Assembly: GCF_024502345.1 (NCBI RefSeq)
Contig: NZ_JALDNN010000001.1
Reading direction: 5' to 3' (one strand)
DNA from: Escherichia coli
Lineage (GTDB): Bacteria > Pseudomonadota > Gammaproteobacteria > Enterobacterales > Enterobacteriaceae
Length of the DNA stretch: 64,000 bases
This document shows, in pieces, positions 3,521 through 41,931 of this stretch. A program made the translations under genes and the position numbers. The number at the start of each line of letters is the position of its first letter. Position 1 is the first letter of the stretch. Under the pieces are notes generated by a model, which was not told the DNA's origin, searched no databases, and was given only the letters and a program-made list of their open reading frames with translations.

Positions 3521-3615
3521 CATCACTATTGCCGGATGCGGCGTAAACGCCTTATCTGGCCTACGGAGAGCATTTGTAGGCCTGATAAGACGCGGCAAGC
3601 GTCGCATCAGGCATT
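3521..3615. repeat. REP/BIME palindromic elements (inverted pair)
   Basis: gccggatgcggcgtaaacgccttatctggcctac followed by inverted gtaggcctgataagacgcg...gcgtcgcatcaggc, matching REP consensus. Confidence 0.7.
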
Positions 3616-7293: not shown

Positions 7294-14140
<6,847 letters not shown>

Positions 14141-16845: not shown

Positions 16846-19695
16846 TTGAAATACCTTGCTTCTTTTCGTACAACCCTGAAAGCCTCGCGCTACATGTTCA
16901 GAGCATTGGCGTTAGTGCTCTGGCTGTTGATTGCTTTTTCATCCGTTTTTTACATCGTTAATGCGTTACATCAGCGAGAATCGGAAATTCGTCAGGAATT
17001 TAATCTGAGTTCCGATCAGGCTCAGCGCTTTATTCAACGCACCTCTGATGTGATGAAAGAGCTGAAGTACATCGCCGAAAATCGCTTATCGGCAGAAAAC
17101 GGTGTGCTTTCCCCGCGTGGACGAGAAACGCAGGCGGATGTGCCTGCGTTTGAACCGCTGTTTGCCGACTCCGATTGTTCAGCAATGAGTAACACCTGGC
17201 GAGGTTCTCTGGAGTCATTGGCGTGGTTTATGCGCTACTGGCGCGATAATTTTTCTGCGGCTTACGATCTCAATCGGGTATTTTTAATCGGCAGCGATAA
17301 CCTCTGCATGGCCAATTTCGGTCTGCGTGATATGCCAGTGGAACGCGATACCGCGTTGAAAGCGTTGCATGAACGCATCAATAAATATCGAAATGCACCA
17401 CAAGATGATAGCGGCAGTAACCTCTACTGGATCAGCGAAGGTCCGCGCCCTGGCGTCGGGTATTTTTACGCGTTGACGCCAGTTTATCTGGCGAACCGGT
17501 TGCAGGCGCTTTTGGGTGTCGAGCAGACCATCCGGATGGAGAATTTTTTCTTACCTGGTACGTTGCCGATGGGGGTTACCATTCTTGATGAAAATGGTCA
17601 TACCCTGATTTCGCTTACCGGACCAGAAAGCAAAATTAAGGGCGATCCTCGCTGGATGCAGGAACGCTCCTGGTTTGGCTATACGGAAGGGTTCCGGGAG
17701 CTGGTGCTGAAGAAAAATCTGCCACCCTCATCGCTAAGCATCGTTTATTCGGTGCCGGTTGATAAGGTGCTGGAACGCATTCGCATGTTGATCCTTAACG
17801 CAATTTTGCTGAATGTGCTTGCCGGAGCTGCATTGTTTACTCTCGCGCGGATGTACGAGCGGCGTATTTTCATTCCGGCGGAAAGCGACGCCCTGCGACT
17901 GGAAGAACATGAGCAGTTCAATCGCAAGATTGTCGCCTCCGCGCCAGTGGGTATCTGCATTTTGCGTACCGCTGATGGCGTCAATATTTTAAGTAACGAA
18001 CTGGCGCATACCTATCTCAATATGCTTACGCATGAGGACCGCCAACGACTGACGCAAATTATCTGTGGGCAGCAGGTCAATTTTGTTGATGTCCTGACCA
18101 GCAACAATACCAATCTGCAAATCAGCTTCGTCCATTCGCGCTATCGTAATGAAAACGTGGCCATTTGTGTGCTGGTGGATGTTTCTTCGCGCGTGAAGAT
18201 GGAAGAGTCGTTGCAGGAGATGGCACAAGCAGCGGAACAGGCGAGCCAGTCAAAATCGATGTTCCTTGCCACCGTCAGTCATGAGCTGCGAACGCCGCTG
18301 TATGGCATTATCGGTAACCTGGATCTGTTGCAAACCAAAGAGTTACCGAAAGGCGTCGATCGTCTGGTGACGGCAATGAACAACTCTTCCAGCCTGTTGT
18401 TGAAAATTATCAGCGATATTCTCGATTTCTCGAAGATTGAATCAGAACAGTTGAAGATCGAACCGCGTGAGTTTTCACCGCGTGAAGTGATGAACCACAT
18501 CACCGCCAACTATTTACCGCTGGTGGTACGCAAGCAGTTAGGCTTGTACTGCTTTATTGAACCGGATGTGCCAGTGGCTTTAAATGGCGACCCGATGCGT
18601 TTACAGCAGGTCATCTCCAACCTGTTGAGTAACGCCATAAAATTCACCGATACCGGCTGTATAGTTTTGCATGTTCGCGCTGATGGCGATTATCTCTCTA
18701 TCCGTGTTCGCGATACCGGCGTGGGGATACCGGCGAAAGAAGTGGTGCGCTTGTTTGATCCCTTCTTCCAGGTCGGAACGGGCGTACAGCGAAACTTCCA
18801 GGGGACCGGTCTGGGTCTGGCGATTTGTGAAAAACTGATCAGCATGATGGACGGCGACATCTCGGTAGATTCAGAACCGGGAATGGGCAGCCAGTTTACC
18901 GTGCGTATTCCGTTGTACGGCGCTCAGTACCCGCAGAAAAAAGGCGTGGAAGGGTTGAGTGGTAAACGCTGCTGGCTGGCGGTCCGCAATGCGTCGCTCT
19001 GTCAGTTCCTGGAAACCAGTTTGCAGCGCAGCGGCATCGTCGTAACAACATACGAAGGGCAGGAACCGACTCCCGAAGATGTGTTAATTACTGACGAGGT
19101 AGTGAGTAAAAAATGGCAGGGTAGAGCGGTAGTGACCTTCTGTCGTCGCCATATTGGTATTCCGCTGGAGAAAGCGCCAGGGGAGTGGGTACACAGTGTG
19201 GCTGCTCCGCATGAGCTACCGGCATTGTTGGCGCGTATTTATTTGATCGAGATGGAGAGCGACGATCCTGCTAACGCTCTGCCGTCGACGGACAAAGCGG
19301 TCAGCGATAATGACGATATGATGATTCTGGTCGTGGATGATCATCCGATTAACCGACGTCTGCTGGCAGATCAGTTGGGATCGTTGGGCTATCAATGTAA
19401 AACCGCGAATGATGGCGTCGATGCGCTTAATGTACTTAGCAAGAATCATATTGATATCGTGCTTAGCGACGTCAACATGCCAAATATGGATGGTTACCGC
19501 TTGACGCAACGCATTCGTCAGTTGGGACTGACGTTGCCGGTAATCGGAGTAACTGCTAATGCGTTGGCTGAAGAGAAGCAGCGGTGTCTGGAGTCCGGTA
19601 TGGACAGCTGCCTGTCGAAGCCGGTAACGCTGGATGTGATAAAACAGACGCTGACGGTATATGCCGAGAGGGTCAGGAAATCGCGGGAATCGTAG
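16846..19695 (+). CDS. rcsC: hybrid sensor histidine kinase of the Rcs phosphorelay
   Basis: 949-aa ORF MKYLASFRTTLKASRYMFRALALVLWLL...; H-box SHELRTPL, ATPase motifs and C-terminal receiver domain (VVDDHPINRRLL); apparent TTG start. Confidence 0.96.
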   Translation: MKYLASFRTTLKASRYMFRALALVLWLLIAFSSVFYIVNALHQRESEIRQEFNLSSDQAQRFIQRTSDVMKELKYIAENRLSAENGVLSPRGRETQADVPAFEPLFADSDCSAMSNTWRGSLESLAWFMRYWRDNFSAAYDLNRVFLIGSDNLCMANFGLRDMPVERDTALKALHERINKYRNAPQDDSGSNLYWISEGPRPGVGYFYALTPVYLANRLQALLGVEQTIRMENFFLPGTLPMGVTILDENGHTLISLTGPESKIKGDPRWMQERSWFGYTEGFRELVLKKNLPPSSLSIVYSVPVDKVLERIRMLILNAILLNVLAGAALFTLARMYERRIFIPAESDALRLEEHEQFNRKIVASAPVGICILRTADGVNILSNELAHTYLNMLTHEDRQRLTQIICGQQVNFVDVLTSNNTNLQISFVHSRYRNENVAICVLVDVSSRVKMEESLQEMAQAAEQASQSKSMFLATVSHELRTPLYGIIGNLDLLQTKELPKGVDRLVTAMNNSSSLLLKIISDILDFSKIESEQLKIEPREFSPREVMNHITANYLPLVVRKQLGLYCFIEPDVPVALNGDPMRLQQVISNLLSNAIKFTDTGCIVLHVRADGDYLSIRVRDTGVGIPAKEVVRLFDPFFQVGTGVQRNFQGTGLGLAICEKLISMMDGDISVDSEPGMGSQFTVRIPLYGAQYPQKKGVEGLSGKRCWLAVRNASLCQFLETSLQRSGIVVTTYEGQEPTPEDVLITDEVVSKKWQGRAVVTFCRRHIGIPLEKAPGEWVHSVAAPHELPALLARIYLIEMESDDPANALPSTDKAVSDNDDMMILVVDDHPINRRLLADQLGSLGYQCKTANDGVDALNVLSKNHIDIVLSDVNMPNMDGYRLTQRIRQLGLTLPVIGVTANALAEEKQRCLESGMDSCLSKPVTLDVIKQTLTVYAERVRKSRES

Positions 19696-19890
19696 GACGG
19701 ATAAGGTGTTTATGCCGCATCCGGCATTCAGTGCAAATGCCAGATGCGACGCTGACGCGTCTTATCTGGCCTACTTTAATGTAATCTGTTGAAATAATGG
19801 GAATCGTAGGACGGATAAGGCGTTTACGCCGCATCCGGCAATCGGTGCAAATGCCAGATAAGACACTAACGCGTCTTATCTGGCCTACAG
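19696..19890. repeat. REP/BIME elements (two copies) between convergent rcsC and rcsB
   Basis: Two near-identical units gacggataaggygtttaygccgcatccggca...gccagat.agacgc...gcgtcttatctggcctac. Confidence 0.7.
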
Positions 19891-23545: not shown

Positions 23546-23638
23546 AAAAAAAACCGGATGCGAGGCATCCGGTTGAAATAGGGGTAAACAGACATTCAGA
23601 AATGAATGACGGTAATAAATAAAGTTAATGATGATAGC
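23546..23638 (-). ncRNA. micF: MicF antisense sRNA
   Basis: Reverse complement reads GCTATCATCATTAACTTTATTTATTACCGTCATTCATTTCTGAATGTCTGTTTACCCCTATTTCAACCGG...GCCTCGCATCCGG followed by a T-run; divergent from ompC. Confidence 0.85.
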
Positions 23639-23972
23639 GGGAGATATTCTAGTTGCGAGTGAAGGTTTTGTTTTGACATTCAGTGCTGTCAAATACTTAA
23701 GAATAAGTTATTGATTTTAACCTTGAATTATTATTGCTTGATGTTAGGTGCTTATTTCGCCATTCCGTAATAATCTTAAAAAGTTCCCTTGCATTTACAT
23801 TTTGAAACATCTATAGCGATAAATGAAACATCTTAAAAGTTTTAGTATCATATTCGTGTTGGATTATTCTGCATTTTTGGGGAGAATGGACCTGCCGACT
23901 GATTAATGAGGGTTAATCAGTATGCAGTGGCATAAAAAAGCAAATAAAGGCATATAACAGAGGGTTAATAAC
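23639..23972. promoter_or_regulatory. micF-ompC divergent control region (expected OmpR-binding region)
   Basis: AT-rich intergenic region between the divergent micF and ompC; individual sites not resolved by eye. Confidence 0.45.
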
Positions 23973-29964: not shown

Positions 29965-31623
<1,659 letters not shown>

Positions 31624-31627
31624 TGAT

Positions 31628-32100
31628 GTGCCACATCCGGCATGGTATGCCGGATGTGGCGTATGCTGATAAGACGCGCCAGCGTCGCATCAGGCAACCG
31701 GCTCGGGCGTTAGATGTCGGATGCGGCGTGACCGCCTTATCCGACCTACGGGGTGGAGCACTTCACAGCGGTGTAGGCCTGATAAGACGCGTCAGCGTCG
31801 CATCAGGCAACCGGCTCGGACGTTGGATGTCGGATGCGGCGTAACCGCCTTATCCGACCTACGGGGTGGAGCACTTCACAGCGGTGTAGGCCTGATAAGA
31901 CGCGTCAGCGTCGCATCAGGCAACCGGCTCGGACGTTGGATGTCGGATGCGGCGTAACCGACTTATTCGACCTACGGGGTGGAGCACTTCACAGCGGCGT
32001 AGGCCTGATAAGACGCGTCAGCGTCGCATCAGGCAACCGGCTCGGGCGTTAGATGTCGGATGCGGCGTGACCGCCTTATCCGACCTACGGGGTGACGCAC
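31628..32100. repeat. mqo terminator hairpin followed by a tandem array of about four 113-bp BIME/REP units
   Basis: Perfect 13-bp inverted repeat ccacatccggcat/atgccggatgtgg, then a 113-bp unit (gataagacgcg.cagcgtcgcatcaggcaaccggctcgg.cgtt.gatgtcggatgcggcgt.accgccttatccgacctacggggtggagcacttcacagcgg.gtaggcct) repeated with few substitutions. Confidence 0.8.
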
Positions 32101-32111
32101 TTCACAGCAGT

Positions 32112-32600
32112 TTAGCGAACTACCGCGTTGTCAATTTTCTCTTCCGCCTTCCAGACGCGGTACTTCACATCTACATTGTCTGGCGTATACACCACGATCG
32201 GCAGCTTGCTGTTGTAACGCAGCATTCCAGCATCGCCCAGATACGCGGTGACAAATTTCTTCTCTTTCTTGCCATCCGGGCAGGCCATCATCGTGGAAAC
32301 CGGCGAGCTAACTTTATCAAAGACATAATAATCATAGCCCCAGCCTTCCAGCGTTTTGCTTTCCAGCTTCCCGCCGAGACGATGCAAATTGCAATCGACT
32401 TCCAGCGTCTGACCGATTAACAGTTCTACTTTCAGGGTAGATTCATCTTCTTGCGGGGTTAACTGAATCACCTGACGCTTCATGCCTTTTTCAGCTTGTG
32501 GATAAGGCGCGATTTTTTCCAGTGGCTGGACGCTCTCTGCCGCCCAGGCGGAAGTGGTGGCGAAAGCGGCAAACAATACTGCAGGTAGAATGGTCTTCAT
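32112..32600 (-). CDS. eco: ecotin, periplasmic serine protease inhibitor
   Basis: 162-aa translation [71 protein letters not shown]... Confidence 0.95.
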
Positions 32601-33006
32601 TTTTTGCTTTCCTTCTTCATTTATAGGTTTGCACCGATGATGTCGCTGAAGGTTAACATATTCATCAGATTTATTAATTTGCTTTATGAATAACTTAAAG
32701 AATATTCAGACAATTTTACCTGCTCTTTTAGTGTTAAATTCTGATGAGAGAGCAAAACAGCAGAAATATCTCTGGTGAATTAATCGCTATATAAATATAT
32801 TTATAACCATTTGAAATGTGAGCAAAAGCCCGTTTTTGCCACGCTTCCCGCCACTCTTTTGATCCTGCTACAGGTTTTACCTCGATCGGGGTATGCATCT
32901 TTGACACATCCTTTAATATCTTAGCGGCTATAAAAATGGCTTATTAATTATGCGGTTTATTTGGTCGCTCTCAATTTTCAGAGCGCGTTAATGATGGAAG
33001 GTCAAT
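32601..33006. promoter_or_regulatory. eco/napF divergent promoter region
   Basis: 406-bp AT-rich intergenic region between divergent genes; individual Fnr/NarP sites could not be confirmed by eye. Confidence 0.35.
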
Positions 33007-36939: not shown

Positions 36940-37789
36940 ACGTGACGCCGGGCGCGAGGCGCTGGAGAAAAAAGGCTGGTGGCGCAGTCACCGTTGGCTG
37001 GTGTTACGTCGCCTTTGTCAGTTCTTCGTGCTGGGGATGTTTTTGAGCGGTCCGTGGTTTGGTGTGTGGATCTTGCACGGCAACTACAGCAGTAGCCTGT
37101 TATTCGACACCGTTCCGCTGACCGATCCGCTGATGACGCTGCAAAGTCTTGCCAGTGGTCATCTGCCTGCCACGGTGGCGTTGACCGGTGCGGTGATTAT
37201 CACCGTGCTCTACGCCCTGGCAGGAAAGCGATTATTTTGCAGCTGGGTCTGCCCGCTGAACCCGATTACCGACTTAGCGAACTGGTTACGCAGGCGCTTT
37301 GACCTCAATCAGTCTGCGACGATCCCTCGCCACATTCGCTACGTGCTGTTGGTGGTCATTCTGGTGGGATCTGCCTTAACTGGCACGCTCATCTGGGAAT
37401 GGATCAACCCCGTTTCCCTGATGGGGCGTAGCCTGGTAATGGGCTTCGGCAGCGGCGCGCTGCTTATTCTCGCGCTGTTTTTATTTGATCTACTGGTCGT
37501 TGAACACGGCTGGTGCGGGCACATTTGTCCGGTTGGCGCGCTGTATGGCGTGCTGGGTAGCAAAGGTGTGATTACCGTTGCGGCCAGCGATCGGCAGAAA
37601 TGTAACCGCTGTATGGATTGTTTTCATGTTTGCCCGGAACCGCATGTGCTACGTGCCCCGGTGCTGGATGAACAAAGCCCGGTGCAGGTCACCAGCCGCG
37701 ATTGCATGACGTGCGGTCGCTGCGTGGATGTCTGTTCTGAGGATGTATTTACAATAACTACACGATGGAGTTCGGGAGCGAAATCATGA
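36926..37789 (+). CDS. napH: membrane ferredoxin-type protein NapH
   Basis: 287 aa, TM segments plus C-terminal CxxCxxC motifs. Confidence 0.94.
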
Positions 37790-38229
37790 AAAGCCATGAC
37801 CTGAAGAAAGCGCTGTGTCAATGGACGGCGATGCTGGCCCTGGTGGTAAGCGGCGCGGTTTGGGCGGCTAATGGCGTCGATTTTAGCCAGTCGCCGGAAG
37901 TATCCGGGACGCAGGAAGGGGCCATTCGGATGCCAAAAGAGCAGGATCGGATGCCGCTGAACTATGTGAATCAGCCGCCAATGATCCCGCATAGCGTTGA
38001 AGGTTATCAGGTAACGACCAATACCAACCGCTGCTTGCAGTGCCACGGTGTCGAAAGCTATCGCACCACTGGCGCGCCGCGTATCAGTCCTACTCACTTT
38101 ATGGACAGCGACGGCAAAGTGGGCGCGGAAGTGGCTCCGCGTCGTTATTTCTGTCTGCAATGTCACGTACCGCAGGCCGATACCGCGCCAATCGTGGGGA
38201 ATACCTTTACCCCATCAAATACCGAATGA
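37786..38229 (+). CDS. napB: periplasmic nitrate reductase dihaem cytochrome c subunit; final codons appear replaced at the prophage junction
   Basis: [27 protein letters not shown]... with two CxxCH motifs (CLQCH x2); ends ...NTFTPSNTE whereas the remembered reference ends ...TPSKGYGK. Confidence 0.88.
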   Translation: MKSHDLKKALCQWTAMLALVVSGAVWAANGVDFSQSPEVSGTQEGAIRMPKEQDRMPLNYVNQPPMIPHSVEGYQVTTNTNRCLQCHGVESYRTTGAPRISPTHFMDSDGKVGAEVAPRRYFCLQCHVPQADTAPIVGNTFTPSNTE

Positions 38230-38671
38230 AGTGGACTATCGAAAATTGCAGGAACTGTTCACGCGGATCGCCATCGATAAACATATTCAGCAAAAGCTTG
38301 AACATCCTCACCACCAGCTGGTGGCTACCTACCAGTCATTAAACCGCAAGTATTCAGAATTGCTGGAGGAATACAAAATCCTTCGGCGCTGCTTCTCTGT
38401 TTCCGCTCTTGTTCCTTATACCGACGTATGGACACATAAGCCTGTTCAGTTTTATCCAGGCAAACATCCATGCGAAAAACCTGCCGACATGCTGAAACAG
38501 ATCATTAGCGCCAGCAGCAGACCGGGGGATATCGTTGCCGATTTCTTTATGGGCTCTGGTTCAACTGTGAAAGCTGCAATAGAACTTGGCCGTCGGGCGA
38601 TCGGCGTAGAACTGGAGGCAGACAGGTTTATACAGACCACCGAAGAGGTGGAAAAACTGAAAAAATCATAA
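38219..38671 (+). pseudogene. 5'-truncated phage DNA N6-adenine/N4-cytosine methyltransferase (C-terminal fragment only)
   Basis: HPCEKP and DIVADFFMGSGSTVKAAIELGRRAIGVELE (FxGxG SAM-binding motif I) present; no DPPY catalytic motif and no in-frame start after the napB junction. Confidence 0.6.
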
Positions 38672-38816
38672 CGATCACCACGCTCCCCCGTTGCTGTGGT
38701 GATCACCATCTTCAGGCACCGGGAATCATCCTTAATTTTTACTTGAACATAAGAGCCCGGTTGCCTGATCCCCTTCAATCACACACAGCGCCATCCGAAC
38801 TATCGGAGGTGAGGCT

Positions 38817-39095
38817 ATGACCAGAATGAGCACCATTTACAGCAGACTTTCATATGGATCAGGAACCACGCTTGCCGGCTGCGGTGTATCAGCGAAGGCA
38901 TATGCCGAAACAGCTAAAACAGCAAAAGAGGTGTCCTGGATGTTGGCCGACAGAATTGCAGGGTTAAGCCTGAGTGACTGGGCAATTATTGTCGGTATCG
39001 CATGCACAGTTATCACCTGTGCAGTGAACTGGTATTACAGGAAAAAGGAAAGGGAGGACCGGCTTAATGGCAATGTCACCAAAGCAGAAGAATAA
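38817..39095 (+). CDS. putative holin (pinholin-like, possible dual start MTRM)
   Basis: 92-aa ORF with strong RBS ggaggtga, hydrophobic TM segment WAIIVGIACTVITCAVNWYY and charged C-terminus; directly upstream of the endolysin. Confidence 0.6.
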   Translation: MTRMSTIYSRLSYGSGTTLAGCGVSAKAYAETAKTAKEVSWMLADRIAGLSLSDWAIIVGIACTVITCAVNWYYRKKEREDRLNGNVTKAEE

Positions 39096-39615
39096 ACTGA
39101 GCGCAGCGGTCGTTGGGTTAATTCTTGCCGGGGCTTCCGCACCCGTGATTCTCGATCAGTTTCTGGATGAGAAAGAGGGTAACAGCACAACAGCGTACAA
39201 GGACGGCTCTGGTATATGGACCATTTGTCGTGGCGCTACGATGGTTGATGGCAAGCCAGTAGTTCAGGGCATGAAGCTGTCTGCTGAGAAATGTTCCAAG
39301 GTGAACGCCATAGAACGCGACAAGGCGCTGGCGTGGGTCGAGCGAAACATCAAGGTGCCACTGACCGAACCACAGAAAGCCGGGATCGCGTCTTTCTGCC
39401 CATATAACATCGGTCCCGGAAAATGTTTCCCATCTACGTTCTATAAGCGAATAAATGCTGGCGACCGTGAAGGTGCCTGTGAAGCGATCCGCTGGTGGAT
39501 AAAAGACGGTGGTCGCGATTGTCGTCTGACCAAAGGGCAGAAGAACGGTTGCTATGGTCAGGTTGAACGGCGAGACCAGGAAAGCGCGTTGACGTGCTGG
39601 GGGATAGACCAGTGA
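39067..39615 (+). CDS. SAR endolysin (T4-lysozyme-like muramidase with N-terminal signal-anchor-release domain)
   Basis: N-terminal [19 protein letters not shown] hydrophobic segment followed by the E-x8-D-x5-T catalytic triad context ([20 protein letters not shown]). Confidence 0.85.
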
Positions 39616-41129: not shown

Positions 41130-41514
41130 CTATAAATTAAGATGTTGACGGTTTTCGTGGATAAATTTGTGAATTTTTACTATGAAGGAAATACGACTCT
41201 TCCTTGAGTCAAAATCCCTGACAACTTAGGGTGATAGATAAAGGTCTTACGCAGCATGACATAATTTTCGATTTAAGCTATTTAAATTAATTTTTAAGAT
41301 CAAAACCCACTGAGATTTACTTACAAAACTAAACCTTGCTATGTCTGGTTAATCATGCGTTAATGAATGTCTGGTTTGTAACGAATTTATCTGAAGCAGT
41401 CGCTGTAATAATTTTATTCCTTGTTCCTGTTGAGATTTCCTTGTTAGCTTTTCTCTCTGATAAATTTTTTTCGGACCATTCTGCCCAAGGGCTTACTCAA
41501 TAAAGGTAATGTTT
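41130..41514 (+). promoter_or_regulatory. long AT-rich leader/promoter region upstream of the cold-shock gene
   Basis: About 380 bp AT-rich non-coding sequence before csp, as is typical of the long 5' UTRs of cspA-family genes. Confidence 0.35.
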
Positions 41515-41727
41515 ATGTCTAATAAAATGACTGGTTTAGTTAAATGGTTTAATCCTGAAAAAGGTTTTGGTTTTATCACTCCAAAAGATGGTAGTAAAGA
41601 TGTGTTTGTTCACTTCTCTGCTATCCAGAGTAATGATTTCAAGACGTTGAATGAGAATCAGGAAGTTGAATTTAGTGTTGAACAGGGACCTAAAGGCCCC
41701 ACGGCAGTTAATGTCGTGGCTGTATAA
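41515..41727 (+). CDS. cold-shock protein, CspA family (prophage-borne, CspB/CspI-like)
   Basis: [70 protein letters not shown] with RNP1/RNP2 motifs. Confidence 0.9.
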
Positions 41728-41931
41728 GGTAACTGTTATTACTAATAATATTCACTTCAGATGTCCGTGTTGCCACGGATCTCAGTACCGAACGTCAAAC
41801 TTTGATGTTACTGAAAAAAATCCTTTCGGAGCAAAATGTATTTTTTGCAAATCAACAATGATTACATTTGATAATATTGCACTGTACATTCGTTCTGGTC
41901 AGTCTTCGTTAGAATTCAGAAAATAAATTTC

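Follow-up and report, generated by a model that had tools for sequence, protein, structure and literature searches.

A four-unit strain allele of the BIME-2 array REP161 between the convergent genes mqo and eco of Escherichia coli

The spacer between the convergent genes mqo and eco in an Escherichia coli genome is occupied by a tandem array of 113-bp units, and this array is a four-unit strain allele of REP161, a BIME-2 situated between the 3' ends of the two genes. REP161 is already known as a published gyrase-cleaved BIME-2 with a well-known copy-number polymorphism, and the new part is this allele. The best explanation for the whole, to which a probability of about 90% is given, is a four-unit REP161 BIME-2 allele which has gyrase sites, plays a role in the 3' untranslated region (UTR) of eco and gains and loses units. 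The locus was included in a gyrase target study in 1997, considered here as far as it is quoted in a later paper, and again in 2019, and it also appears in recent REP and terminator tables. REP161 is the EcoCyc name of the eco-mqo cluster in K-12; since the RefSeq records carry no repeat_region features at the locus, the name comes from the literature. The DNA analysed, hereafter called the window, is a stretch of 64,000 nucleotides from contig NZ_JALDNN010000001.1 (RefSeq assembly GCF_024502345.1), and coordinates refer to it unless another genome is named.

The gene mqo, encoding malate:quinone oxidoreductase, is on the plus strand at 29977..31623 (NCBIfam NF003603, 1266 bits, full length), and its coding sequence ends with the stop codon at 31621-31623. 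The gene eco, encoding ecotin, is on the minus strand at 32112..32600 (NCBIfam NF002987, 262 bits), and its translation ends with KIDNAVVR and the stop codon at 32114-32112. The spacer between the two convergent stop codons, 31624-32111, is 488 bp in length. The outer neighbours are yojI and napA, and the window contains the K-12 yojI-mqo-eco-nap region in reverse orientation. A preliminary description of this DNA had placed about four tandem 113-bp units between mqo and eco and had named beforehand, as the test, their alignment to each other at high identity, and both points are borne out. Tandem Repeats Finder gives a single array at 31666-32115 with a period of 113, 4.0 copies, 94% matches, 0% indels and a score of 802, which fills the spacer, and a repeat search gives 224-nt copies at a spacing of 113 nt with 94-100% identity. 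Any two of the four units share 98-104 of 107 positions. At lags of 113 and 226 the self-match fraction is 0.88 and 0.84, respectively, as against at most 0.39 at all other lags, and the top self-match at any lag in 1000 shuffles is 0.387, so the array is far beyond chance. Its G + C content is 62% versus 52% in the window. As to the span, 31628-32100 had been given; the place is right and the right end is slightly short, because the last unit reaches 32111.

When the register is started at GTAGGC, every unit consists of a Z2 REP on the minus strand (36 nt), a 20-nt linker, a Y REP on the plus strand (34 nt) and a 23-nt linker, with Z2 and Y joined head-to-head by the 20-nt linker and tail-to-tail by the 23-nt linker. 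Unit 1 (31660..31772) has its Z2 REP at 31660-31695 and its Y REP at 31716-31749, with linkers at 31696-31715 and 31750-31772. In unit 2 (31773..31885) the REPs are at 31773-31808 (Z2) and 31829-31862 (Y) and the linkers at 31809-31828 and 31863-31885, and in unit 3 (31886..31998) they are at 31886-31921 (Z2), 31942-31975 (Y), 31922-31941 and 31976-31998, respectively. Unit 4, the terminal one (31999..32111), has Z2 at 31999-32034, a linker at 32035-32054, Y at 32055-32088 and a last 23 nt at 32089-32111. Canonical Y and Z2 REP sequences for comparison were taken from the literature (PMC11208160), and the REPs on the minus strand align to the Z2 consensus without gaps and agree with it at 35-36 of 37 positions, and those on the plus strand agree with the Y consensus at 30-32 of 35. 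The window contains 14 instances of the REP head pattern GCCKGATGCGRCG at up to one mismatch, versus 0.6 expected, and 9 of the 14 fall in the mqo-eco spacer in strictly alternating orientation. The Y REPs have a stem variant, GTCGGAT...ATCCGAC versus the canonical GCCGGAT...ATCCGGC, which is changed on both sides, so pairing is kept; the Y REP of unit 3 has, in addition, two private substitutions.

A single unit folds as the two expected hairpins on either strand, with -53.6 kcal/mol on the plus and -48.1 kcal/mol on the minus strand (z about -3.5 and -3.7). When covariation was analysed with 18 distinct units, 95% of the cells were paired, a value equalled by shuffles, with one double change only and too little variation to be informative. 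In the eco-sense RNA the tail-to-tail linker has 10 C versus 5 G in 23 nt, a C-rich composition which may be compatible with some Rho loading, and this is only a hint. BIME-2 elements are described as Y and Z2 REPs in inverted orientation with a short linker, present in well-conserved tandem copies of strain-variable number, and their linkers vary in length and sequence (PMC3333891). The array of the window contains Y and Z2 REPs in alternating orientation, in multiple tandem copies whose number varies between strains; its head-to-head linker is short, 20 nt, and carries neither the L motif nor the IHF site of BIME-1; and it is extragenic, between convergent stop codons. The statement that the units are built of inverted REP-type palindromes agrees with these data, and the same locus of K-12 is a BIME-2.

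The array might instead be regarded as a BIME-1, that is, an IHF-binding element of the RIB/RIP type which bends DNA at the 3' ends of transcription units. IHF binding is established for BIME-1 L linkers, and the preliminary description stated in general terms that such arrays can bind IHF. According to the literature this is a property of BIME-1, which has Z1 and Y with a long L linker and is a single-copy element (PMC3333891). In the window, however, the minus-strand REPs are full-length, gapless Z2 and no Z1-length REP is present, the head-to-head linker is 20 nt, the copies are four in tandem, and the IHF consensus WATCAANNNNTTR has no match in 31624-32111, its three matches in the whole window being all outside the spacer and at chance level. 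BIME-1 membership was rejected on these grounds, the claim of IHF binding by the array has to be withdrawn, and such an element is highly improbable here. Another thought is that the array encodes real repeat proteins, or that it is an artefact of assembly. Open reading frames (ORFs) of 72 to 157 codons do exist on the plus strand, and they form a ladder with starts at 31721, 31834 and 31947, that is, 113 apart. However, three ladder ORFs scanned against NCBIfam had no family match, the RefSeq records inspected all lack an annotated CDS in the spacer, every spacer frame contains 4 to 9 stops, and the period of 113, being 3 x 37 + 2, is not divisible by 3, so that the frame changes from one unit to the next. 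As for an assembly artefact, the identical four-unit allele is found in an independent complete genome, NZ_CP080085.1 (100% over 1,201 bp), and clean multiples of the unit occur in thousands of genomes. The chance that either is true is practically negligible; judged from the sequence, the ladder ORFs are artefacts of the repeat, as had been supposed when they were called spurious, and the array is non-coding.

At the mqo end a stem-loop (31626..31665) comes before the array. Its perfect 14-bp stem (31630-31643 and 31647-31660, with the loop GGT) begins 6 nt past the mqo stop codon and is lengthened to 18 pairs in the plus-strand RNA by two G-U pairs (-29.2 kcal/mol, z -5.8; the other of the two fold energies is -27.8 kcal/mol, z -6.9). 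The arms resemble the Y-REP head (GCCGGATGTGGCG) at 12 of 13 positions, and the stem-loop is without full REP status, with 20-22 of 35 matches to the consensus. The adjoining Z2 foot of unit 1 is degenerate, GTATG-C versus GTAGGCC. Escherichia sp. MOD1-EC7003, which belongs to a cryptic clade, has a canonical CAGGCCTAC at the first foot, with the stem-loop directly after it, so the first foot of E. coli looks like a later decay. At the other end the last unit runs directly up to the eco stop codon. Its closing 23 nt, GGGGTGACGCACTTCACAGCAGT, show homology to the tail-to-tail linkers inside the array, GGGGTGGAGCACTTCACAGCGGT, which means that the amplified unit takes in the 23 nt immediately 3' of eco.

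In a consensus scan of 31300-32700 the spacer yielded neither a sigma-70-like promoter nor a terminator made of a stem and a U-tract, and the stem-loop, with its strong stem and no U-tract, falls outside the definition of an intrinsic (Rho-independent) terminator. It had been called the mqo terminator hairpin, yet a consensus scan sees no U-tract, and the name is upheld from another side. A published table of overlapping bidirectional terminators, reproduced in the supplement of Harris et al. 2026 (10.64898/2026.03.23.713779), lists eco:mqo of K-12 among experimentally derived terminators at 2305063-2305108, in a row flagged REP161, with 46 nt, a stem of 18, a loop of 3, -33.4 kcal/mol, log phase and only 2 U per flank. 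The stem-loop of the window is orthologous to this mapped overlap terminator. Consequently, its role as a terminator rests on the published K-12 mapping, not on sequence rules, and by this mapping it would act like a terminator or a 3'-end barrier outside the canonical definition. Because there is no U-tract, the mapped 3' ends could also be products of exonuclease trimming and not of true termination. In K-12, accordingly, the mqo transcripts stop a little beyond the stem-loop, and those of eco traverse the entire array and overlap with them up to this same stem-loop, so that there the array is the eco 3' UTR and is mostly outside the mqo mRNA.

The number of units was said in the preliminary description to vary between strains, and the comparison proposed there was run as a survey of 5,426 complete E. 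coli genomes. The query consisted of flanks only (700 bp of mqo and 700 bp of eco), and 60 evenly spaced ranking rows were sampled, 59 of which had both flanks joined in one place. In all of these 59 genomes the length of the spacer is 149 + 113(n-1) bp, where n is the number of units. One unit is present in 41 of the 59, three units in 2, four in 1, five in 3, six in 9, seven in 2 and eight in 1; this sampled distribution is strongly bimodal, with about 63-70% having one unit and an expanded mode of six, and two-unit alleles are rare. An internal-junction query, which is present only if n is at least 2, was fully matched in 2,007 of the 5,426 genomes, so at least 37% have two or more units, and up to 11 junctions in one genome imply about 12 units. 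The same query had no plasmid matches among the 5,426 complete genomes, and genomes of the K-12 type have exactly 5 junction places, which means that the linker is nowhere else in the chromosome. About 63% of the complete genomes manage on one unit, which argues that extra units add little.

Alleles of 1, 2, 3, 4, 5, 6, 7 and 8 units were confirmed by sequence, so the variation between strains is real. In every one of these alleles the hairpin, the degenerate foot of the first unit and the 23 nt next to eco are preserved, and the differences consist of whole internal units. When the distinct units are designated u00, u01 and so on, the order in the window is u00 u01 u02 u03, and that in C 236-04A, the flanks of which are 100% identical to those of the window, is u00 u02 u03. 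MG1655 has u04 u05 u06 u05 u07 u08, the K-12-like laboratory strain TUM22763 u04 u05 u06 u05 u08, the locus L006 u12 u05 u06 u05 u08, the locus L005 u10 u11 u05 u08 and strain B u10 u11 u11 u05 u06 u05 u08. The unit u07 equals the terminal u08 except for its right end, which is that of an internal unit; this marks a duplication of the last unit. In addition, "a small expansion of REP161" has been described between the K-12 derivatives DH1 and ER1821R (PMC4982283). As far as the unit orders tell, this whole-unit pattern is of the kind that arises from unequal crossing-over or slippage between near-identical units. TnpA-REP cleaves and recombines BIMEs in vitro (PMC3333891), and on this in vitro basis it may contribute to unit gain and loss. 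Furthermore, a mobilome study found REP161 to be exonuclease-protected under stress, yet no circular junctions were seen.

The outgroups were searched for by means of the back-translated ecotin C-terminus, which returned only E. albertii and Escherichia sp. MOD1-EC7003; no E. coli representative was returned though the window matches the pattern, and the sampling, with two outgroups, is thin. E. albertii NBRC 107761 has a homologous array directly past the eco stop codon (locus L010, 9851-10584), with a period of 113, 6.5 copies, 90% matches and a three-unit super-period of 340 bp. It has the same Y-REP variant, GTCGGATG...ATCCGAC, as E. coli, but it has two clearly different linker types and is without the long hairpin of the E. 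coli type at the mqo end. MOD1-EC7003 has one unit and the hairpin. The identity between units is 88-99% within E. coli, 88-96% within E. albertii and 86-93% between the species, and two E. albertii units with the CAGAT linker have an identity of 0.92-0.93 to E. coli units versus 0.919 to their own neighbours. These values, obtained with two outgroups only, hint that the split of E. coli and E. albertii may be younger than an array containing two or more types of unit, and that the single-unit alleles may be collapses.

Gyrase binding, which the preliminary description also ascribed to such arrays, has been demonstrated for the same locus of K-12, which the enzyme cleaves in vivo independently of transcription. 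The locus appears in Table DS3 of Sutormin et al. (PMC6379681) as "BIMEs2 ... eco>-<mqo" with 654 bp, and by Topo-seq it has 11 gyrase cleavage sites with ciprofloxacin, 7 with rifampicin + ciprofloxacin, 2 with microcin B17 and 5 with oxolinic acid (PMC6379681). "6 cuts" are given for it in Espeli & Boccard 1997, as quoted in the same paper. The interval holds 11 of the 104 ciprofloxacin sites across all 263 BIME-2 intervals of K-12 (PMC6379681), and it is among the most heavily gyrase-cleaved BIME-2s of this strain. Gyrase cleavage is far commoner in Y than in Z2 REPs, and the BIME-2 gyrase signal rises once transcription is blocked by rifampicin (PMC6379681). For the four-unit allele of the window, cleavage is to be expected by extrapolation from the six-unit array of K-12, the Y REPs being conserved, and its transcript ends and transcript stability are likewise extrapolated from K-12.

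In the study of Harris et al. (10.64898/2026.03.23.713779) REP325 is a partly Rho-dependent attenuator or terminator and stabilises the mRNA upstream of it. Expression of both members of a convergent gene pair is higher where REPs lie between them, and REP-adjacent genes show, genome-wide, no longer mRNA half-lives. From such data the following mechanism may be proposed. The four Y REPs would give about four gyrase sites in the window strain, and these would be strong, transcription-independent and placed where convergent transcription piles up positive supercoils, so that the supercoils would be absorbed there. In the eco 3' UTR the REP hairpins and the terminal hairpin would jointly slow 3'-exonucleolytic decay, and, by analogy with REP325, they would partly attenuate eco read-through into antisense mqo. 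The units are 88-99% identical, and their number would shift when homologous recombination between them is unequal or when replication slips from one to another, perhaps with the assistance of TnpA-REP; most of such changes would have little or no phenotypic effect. At the K-12 locus the direct evidence is for gyrase binding and cleavage, and the other functions are suggested by REP325 and the genome-wide data.

It is possible, if rather doubtful, that the array is an essentially neutral or selfish repeat, in which REP doublets amplify and recombine and the effects on gyrase and transcript ends are incidental, with no selected host function. The survey lends itself to such a view with one unit in 41 of the 59 sampled genomes and about 63% overall, a copy number of 1 to about 12 without obvious constraint and a drift of the number even among K-12 laboratory derivatives; the lack of a genome-wide REP effect on half-life and the prediction of REP161 as a RAYT-associated REPIN cluster point in the same direction. 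However, all E. coli alleles inspected retain a unit, as do E. albertii and the cryptic Escherichia clade, the REP stems remain paired (95% of cells, with shuffles as high), and the K-12 locus is heavily gyrase-cleaved with its 11 of 104 ciprofloxacin sites across the 263 BIME-2 intervals. At the opposite extreme, the REP161 unit number may be a heritable, reversible dial and not neutral, which is unlikely. If this were true, the Y REP count would determine how many strong, transcription-independent gyrase sites there are between the two convergent genes, as well as how long the eco 3' UTR is and how it is structured, local supercoiling and the expression of eco and mqo would be tuned in a lineage-specific manner, and the multi-unit array of E. 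albertii would mean long-term maintenance and not a repeated accident.

A third possibility concerns the RNA: the eco 3' UTR might be processed into naRNA4-like Y-linker-Z2 RNAs which bind HU, bridge cruciform DNA and condense the chromosome, a role that has been suggested for REP325. The Y-linker-Z2 doublets of all four units match Rfam naRNA4 (RF02564) on the minus strand, which is the eco orientation, at 31664-31746, 31776-31859, 31889-31972 and 32002-32085, with scores of 61.8, 75.3, 62.0 and 73.2 bits versus a gathering score of 59.5, and the units score only 30-44 bits on the plus strand. K-12 data put the array inside the eco transcript, and according to a proposal of Qian et al. 2015 the role of REP325 could extend to its homologous sequences. 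The alignment to RF02564, however, contains a 7-nt linker insertion (20 nt here versus 13 nt in the model), and the model also matches an unrelated two-unit BIME-2 in the window at 19695-19885, so a match shows only the Y-linker-Z2 shape and not a specific function. Moreover, the condensation of the nucleoid in dependence on HU is disputed even for REP325 (10.64898/2026.03.23.713779): the 2026 re-examination found no stable ternary complex of HU, cruciform DNA and naRNA4, no change of the nucleoid on deletion or overexpression of REP325 and no REP-REP contacts in Hi-C. A source of naRNA4-like RNAs is hence quite unlikely, and the four-unit REP161 allele with gyrase sites and a role in the eco 3' UTR is preferred.

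As a discovery the allele matters little. For annotation, the array explains a block of false ORFs and marks a region prone to assembly and copy-number errors. In addition, genomes which are otherwise similar carry from 1 to about 12 units at this locus, a natural series by which the effects of BIME-2 copy number on supercoiling and on 3' UTR function are testable.

Among known systems the nearest is REP161 of K-12 MG1655 itself (2304394-2305107 in that genome), which shares with the window the flanking genes, the hairpin at the mqo stop codon, the 113-bp unit architecture and the boundaries of the first and last units. The two differ in the number of units, six in K-12 versus four, the K-12 spacer of 714 bp being equal to 488 + 2 x 113. 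None of the variants u00-u03 of the window is present in K-12, and in the outer hairpin stem the window has GT where K-12 has AC, with a minus-strand pairing of 14 versus 18 bp. BIME-1 resembles REP161 in having an inverted REP pair in an extragenic 3' region, but it contains Z1, its long linker is conserved and includes an IHF site, and it occurs singly; REP161 has none of these features. The RRS or "replication risk sequences", which are GC-rich repeats of 222 bp, came into consideration on account of size and BIME-2 context and were rejected, since they are located at dusC and lysO. REP325, which is situated at yjdM-yjdN and is the source of naRNA1-6 and of the RF02564 seed, is likewise a BIME-2 of tandem Y/Z2 doublets in a 3' UTR. 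However, REP325 has a 77-bp doublet, a linker of about 13 nt, as against 20 nt in REP161, and a constant inter-unit spacer; it sits between tandem genes, whereas REP161 sits between convergent ones; and, unlike in REP325, the tail-to-tail linker of REP161 is locus-specific, the 5 junction matches of K-12 being all at eco-mqo.

REP161 is also related in appearance to the REPIN/RAYT systems, because its unit is a REP doublet with GTAG/CTAC feet, and it has been reported as a REPIN cluster predicted by RAREFAN. These feet are the determinants of recognition and cleavage by TnpA-REP (PMC3333891), and in the array of the window they are present in all Y REPs and in three of the four Z2 REPs. In contrast, the changes of REP161 between strains are gains and losses of whole units in place, and for these ordinary homologous recombination is an equally good explanation. 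Finally, IS621, an IS110-family bridge-RNA recombinase, has as its natural target ATCAGGCCTAC within REP (PMC11208160). The array carries three natural target sites of this recombinase, exact copies of the 11-mer on the minus strand at the internal Z2 feet (31773-31783, 31886-31896 and 31999-32009), and a natural IS621 insertion is found in strain 2017-02-2CC exactly between ATCAGGC and CTAC of the eco-mqo array.

The number of 113-bp units in the BIME-2 array between mqo and eco is apparently bimodal among 5,426 complete E. coli genomes, about two thirds of which carry a single unit, and six is the commonest number among the expanded alleles. Two-unit alleles are rare: they were found in none of 59 sampled genomes (0/59), and a single example came to light afterwards, in strain C11. 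Strains with an expanded allele include K-12, B, C41(DE3), HB101 and HS-like strains; O157:H7, O104:H4, O111 and Nissle 1917 have single-unit alleles. This distribution suggests that unit number may be linked to lineage. RefSeq ecotin, the eco product, differs by genome, being annotated as 162 or 169 aa long (comparison loci L003, L005 and L008 versus L004, L006 and L007); the difference comes from the use of another start codon, 7 codons further upstream, and has no connection with the array.

In strain 2017-02-2CC (NZ_AP027764.1, 2233-4000 of locus L009) the array is interrupted by IS621, an element of the IS110 family with a bridge-RNA recombinase. The insertion point reads ...GTGTAG/IS/GCCTGATAAG, and the same junction read on the minus strand, ATCAGGC/CTAC, is the published natural IS621 target 11-mer (PMC11208160). 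Three exact copies of this 11-mer are present in the window's own array, at 31773-31783, 31886-31896 and 31999-32009, and a fourth, at 3576-3586, is in a separate REP outside it.

Other REP clusters in the window are a two-unit BIME-2 on the plus strand (19695-19771 and 19809-19885), which passes the gathering score of the Rfam naRNA4 model RF02564 with 70-74 bits, and a Y/Z2 REP pair at 3531-3612. These clusters show that RF02564 picks up BIME-2 doublets generally.

The stem pairs of the Y REP were compared at columns 59/84, 60/83 and 63/80 of an alignment that combines the window's units with those of K-12 and of further alleles. The third pair is C-G in 9 units, C-A in 8 and T-A in K-12 unit 1, the last being a double, compensatory change. 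The C-A form allows G-U pairing in the minus-strand RNA only, and other changes in K-12 units 5 and 6 allow it in the plus-strand RNA only; the aligned units, which are too few for statistics, show no consistent preference for either strand.

As for the rest of the window, the MicF sRNA (23546-23639, minus strand; RF00033, 116.8 bits) lies beside ompC, as expected for this chromosomal region. A breakpoint is located near 38216, at the 3' end of napB and a truncated phage methyltransferase, whose ORF (38048-38671) matches the phage family profile from position 30 onward only. The stretch 37400-39400 occurs in one piece in none of the 5,426 complete genomes; its napH/napB part is present in 5,421 of them, and the sequence from 38216 on maps to other places. 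The napC and ccm genes are absent. Either the nap operon of this strain has been altered by a prophage insertion or rearrangement peculiar to it, or the window is chimeric. From the breakpoint on (38.2-64 kb), the window is a myovirus-type prophage with genes for endolysin, large terminase, portal, tail sheath, tape measure and baseplate. Within it, a full-length cspA thermoregulator match (41370-41786, plus strand; RF01766, 142.8 bits) overlaps a CspG/CspA-like cold-shock gene of 72 aa (41509-41727).

A homologous array is found in E. albertii NBRC 107761 (9851-10640 of locus L010). It has 6.5 units with a three-unit super-period of 340 bp, and its head-to-head linkers are of two alternating types. 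Its mqo end has neither the long hairpin nor the initial Z2 REP that E. coli has there.
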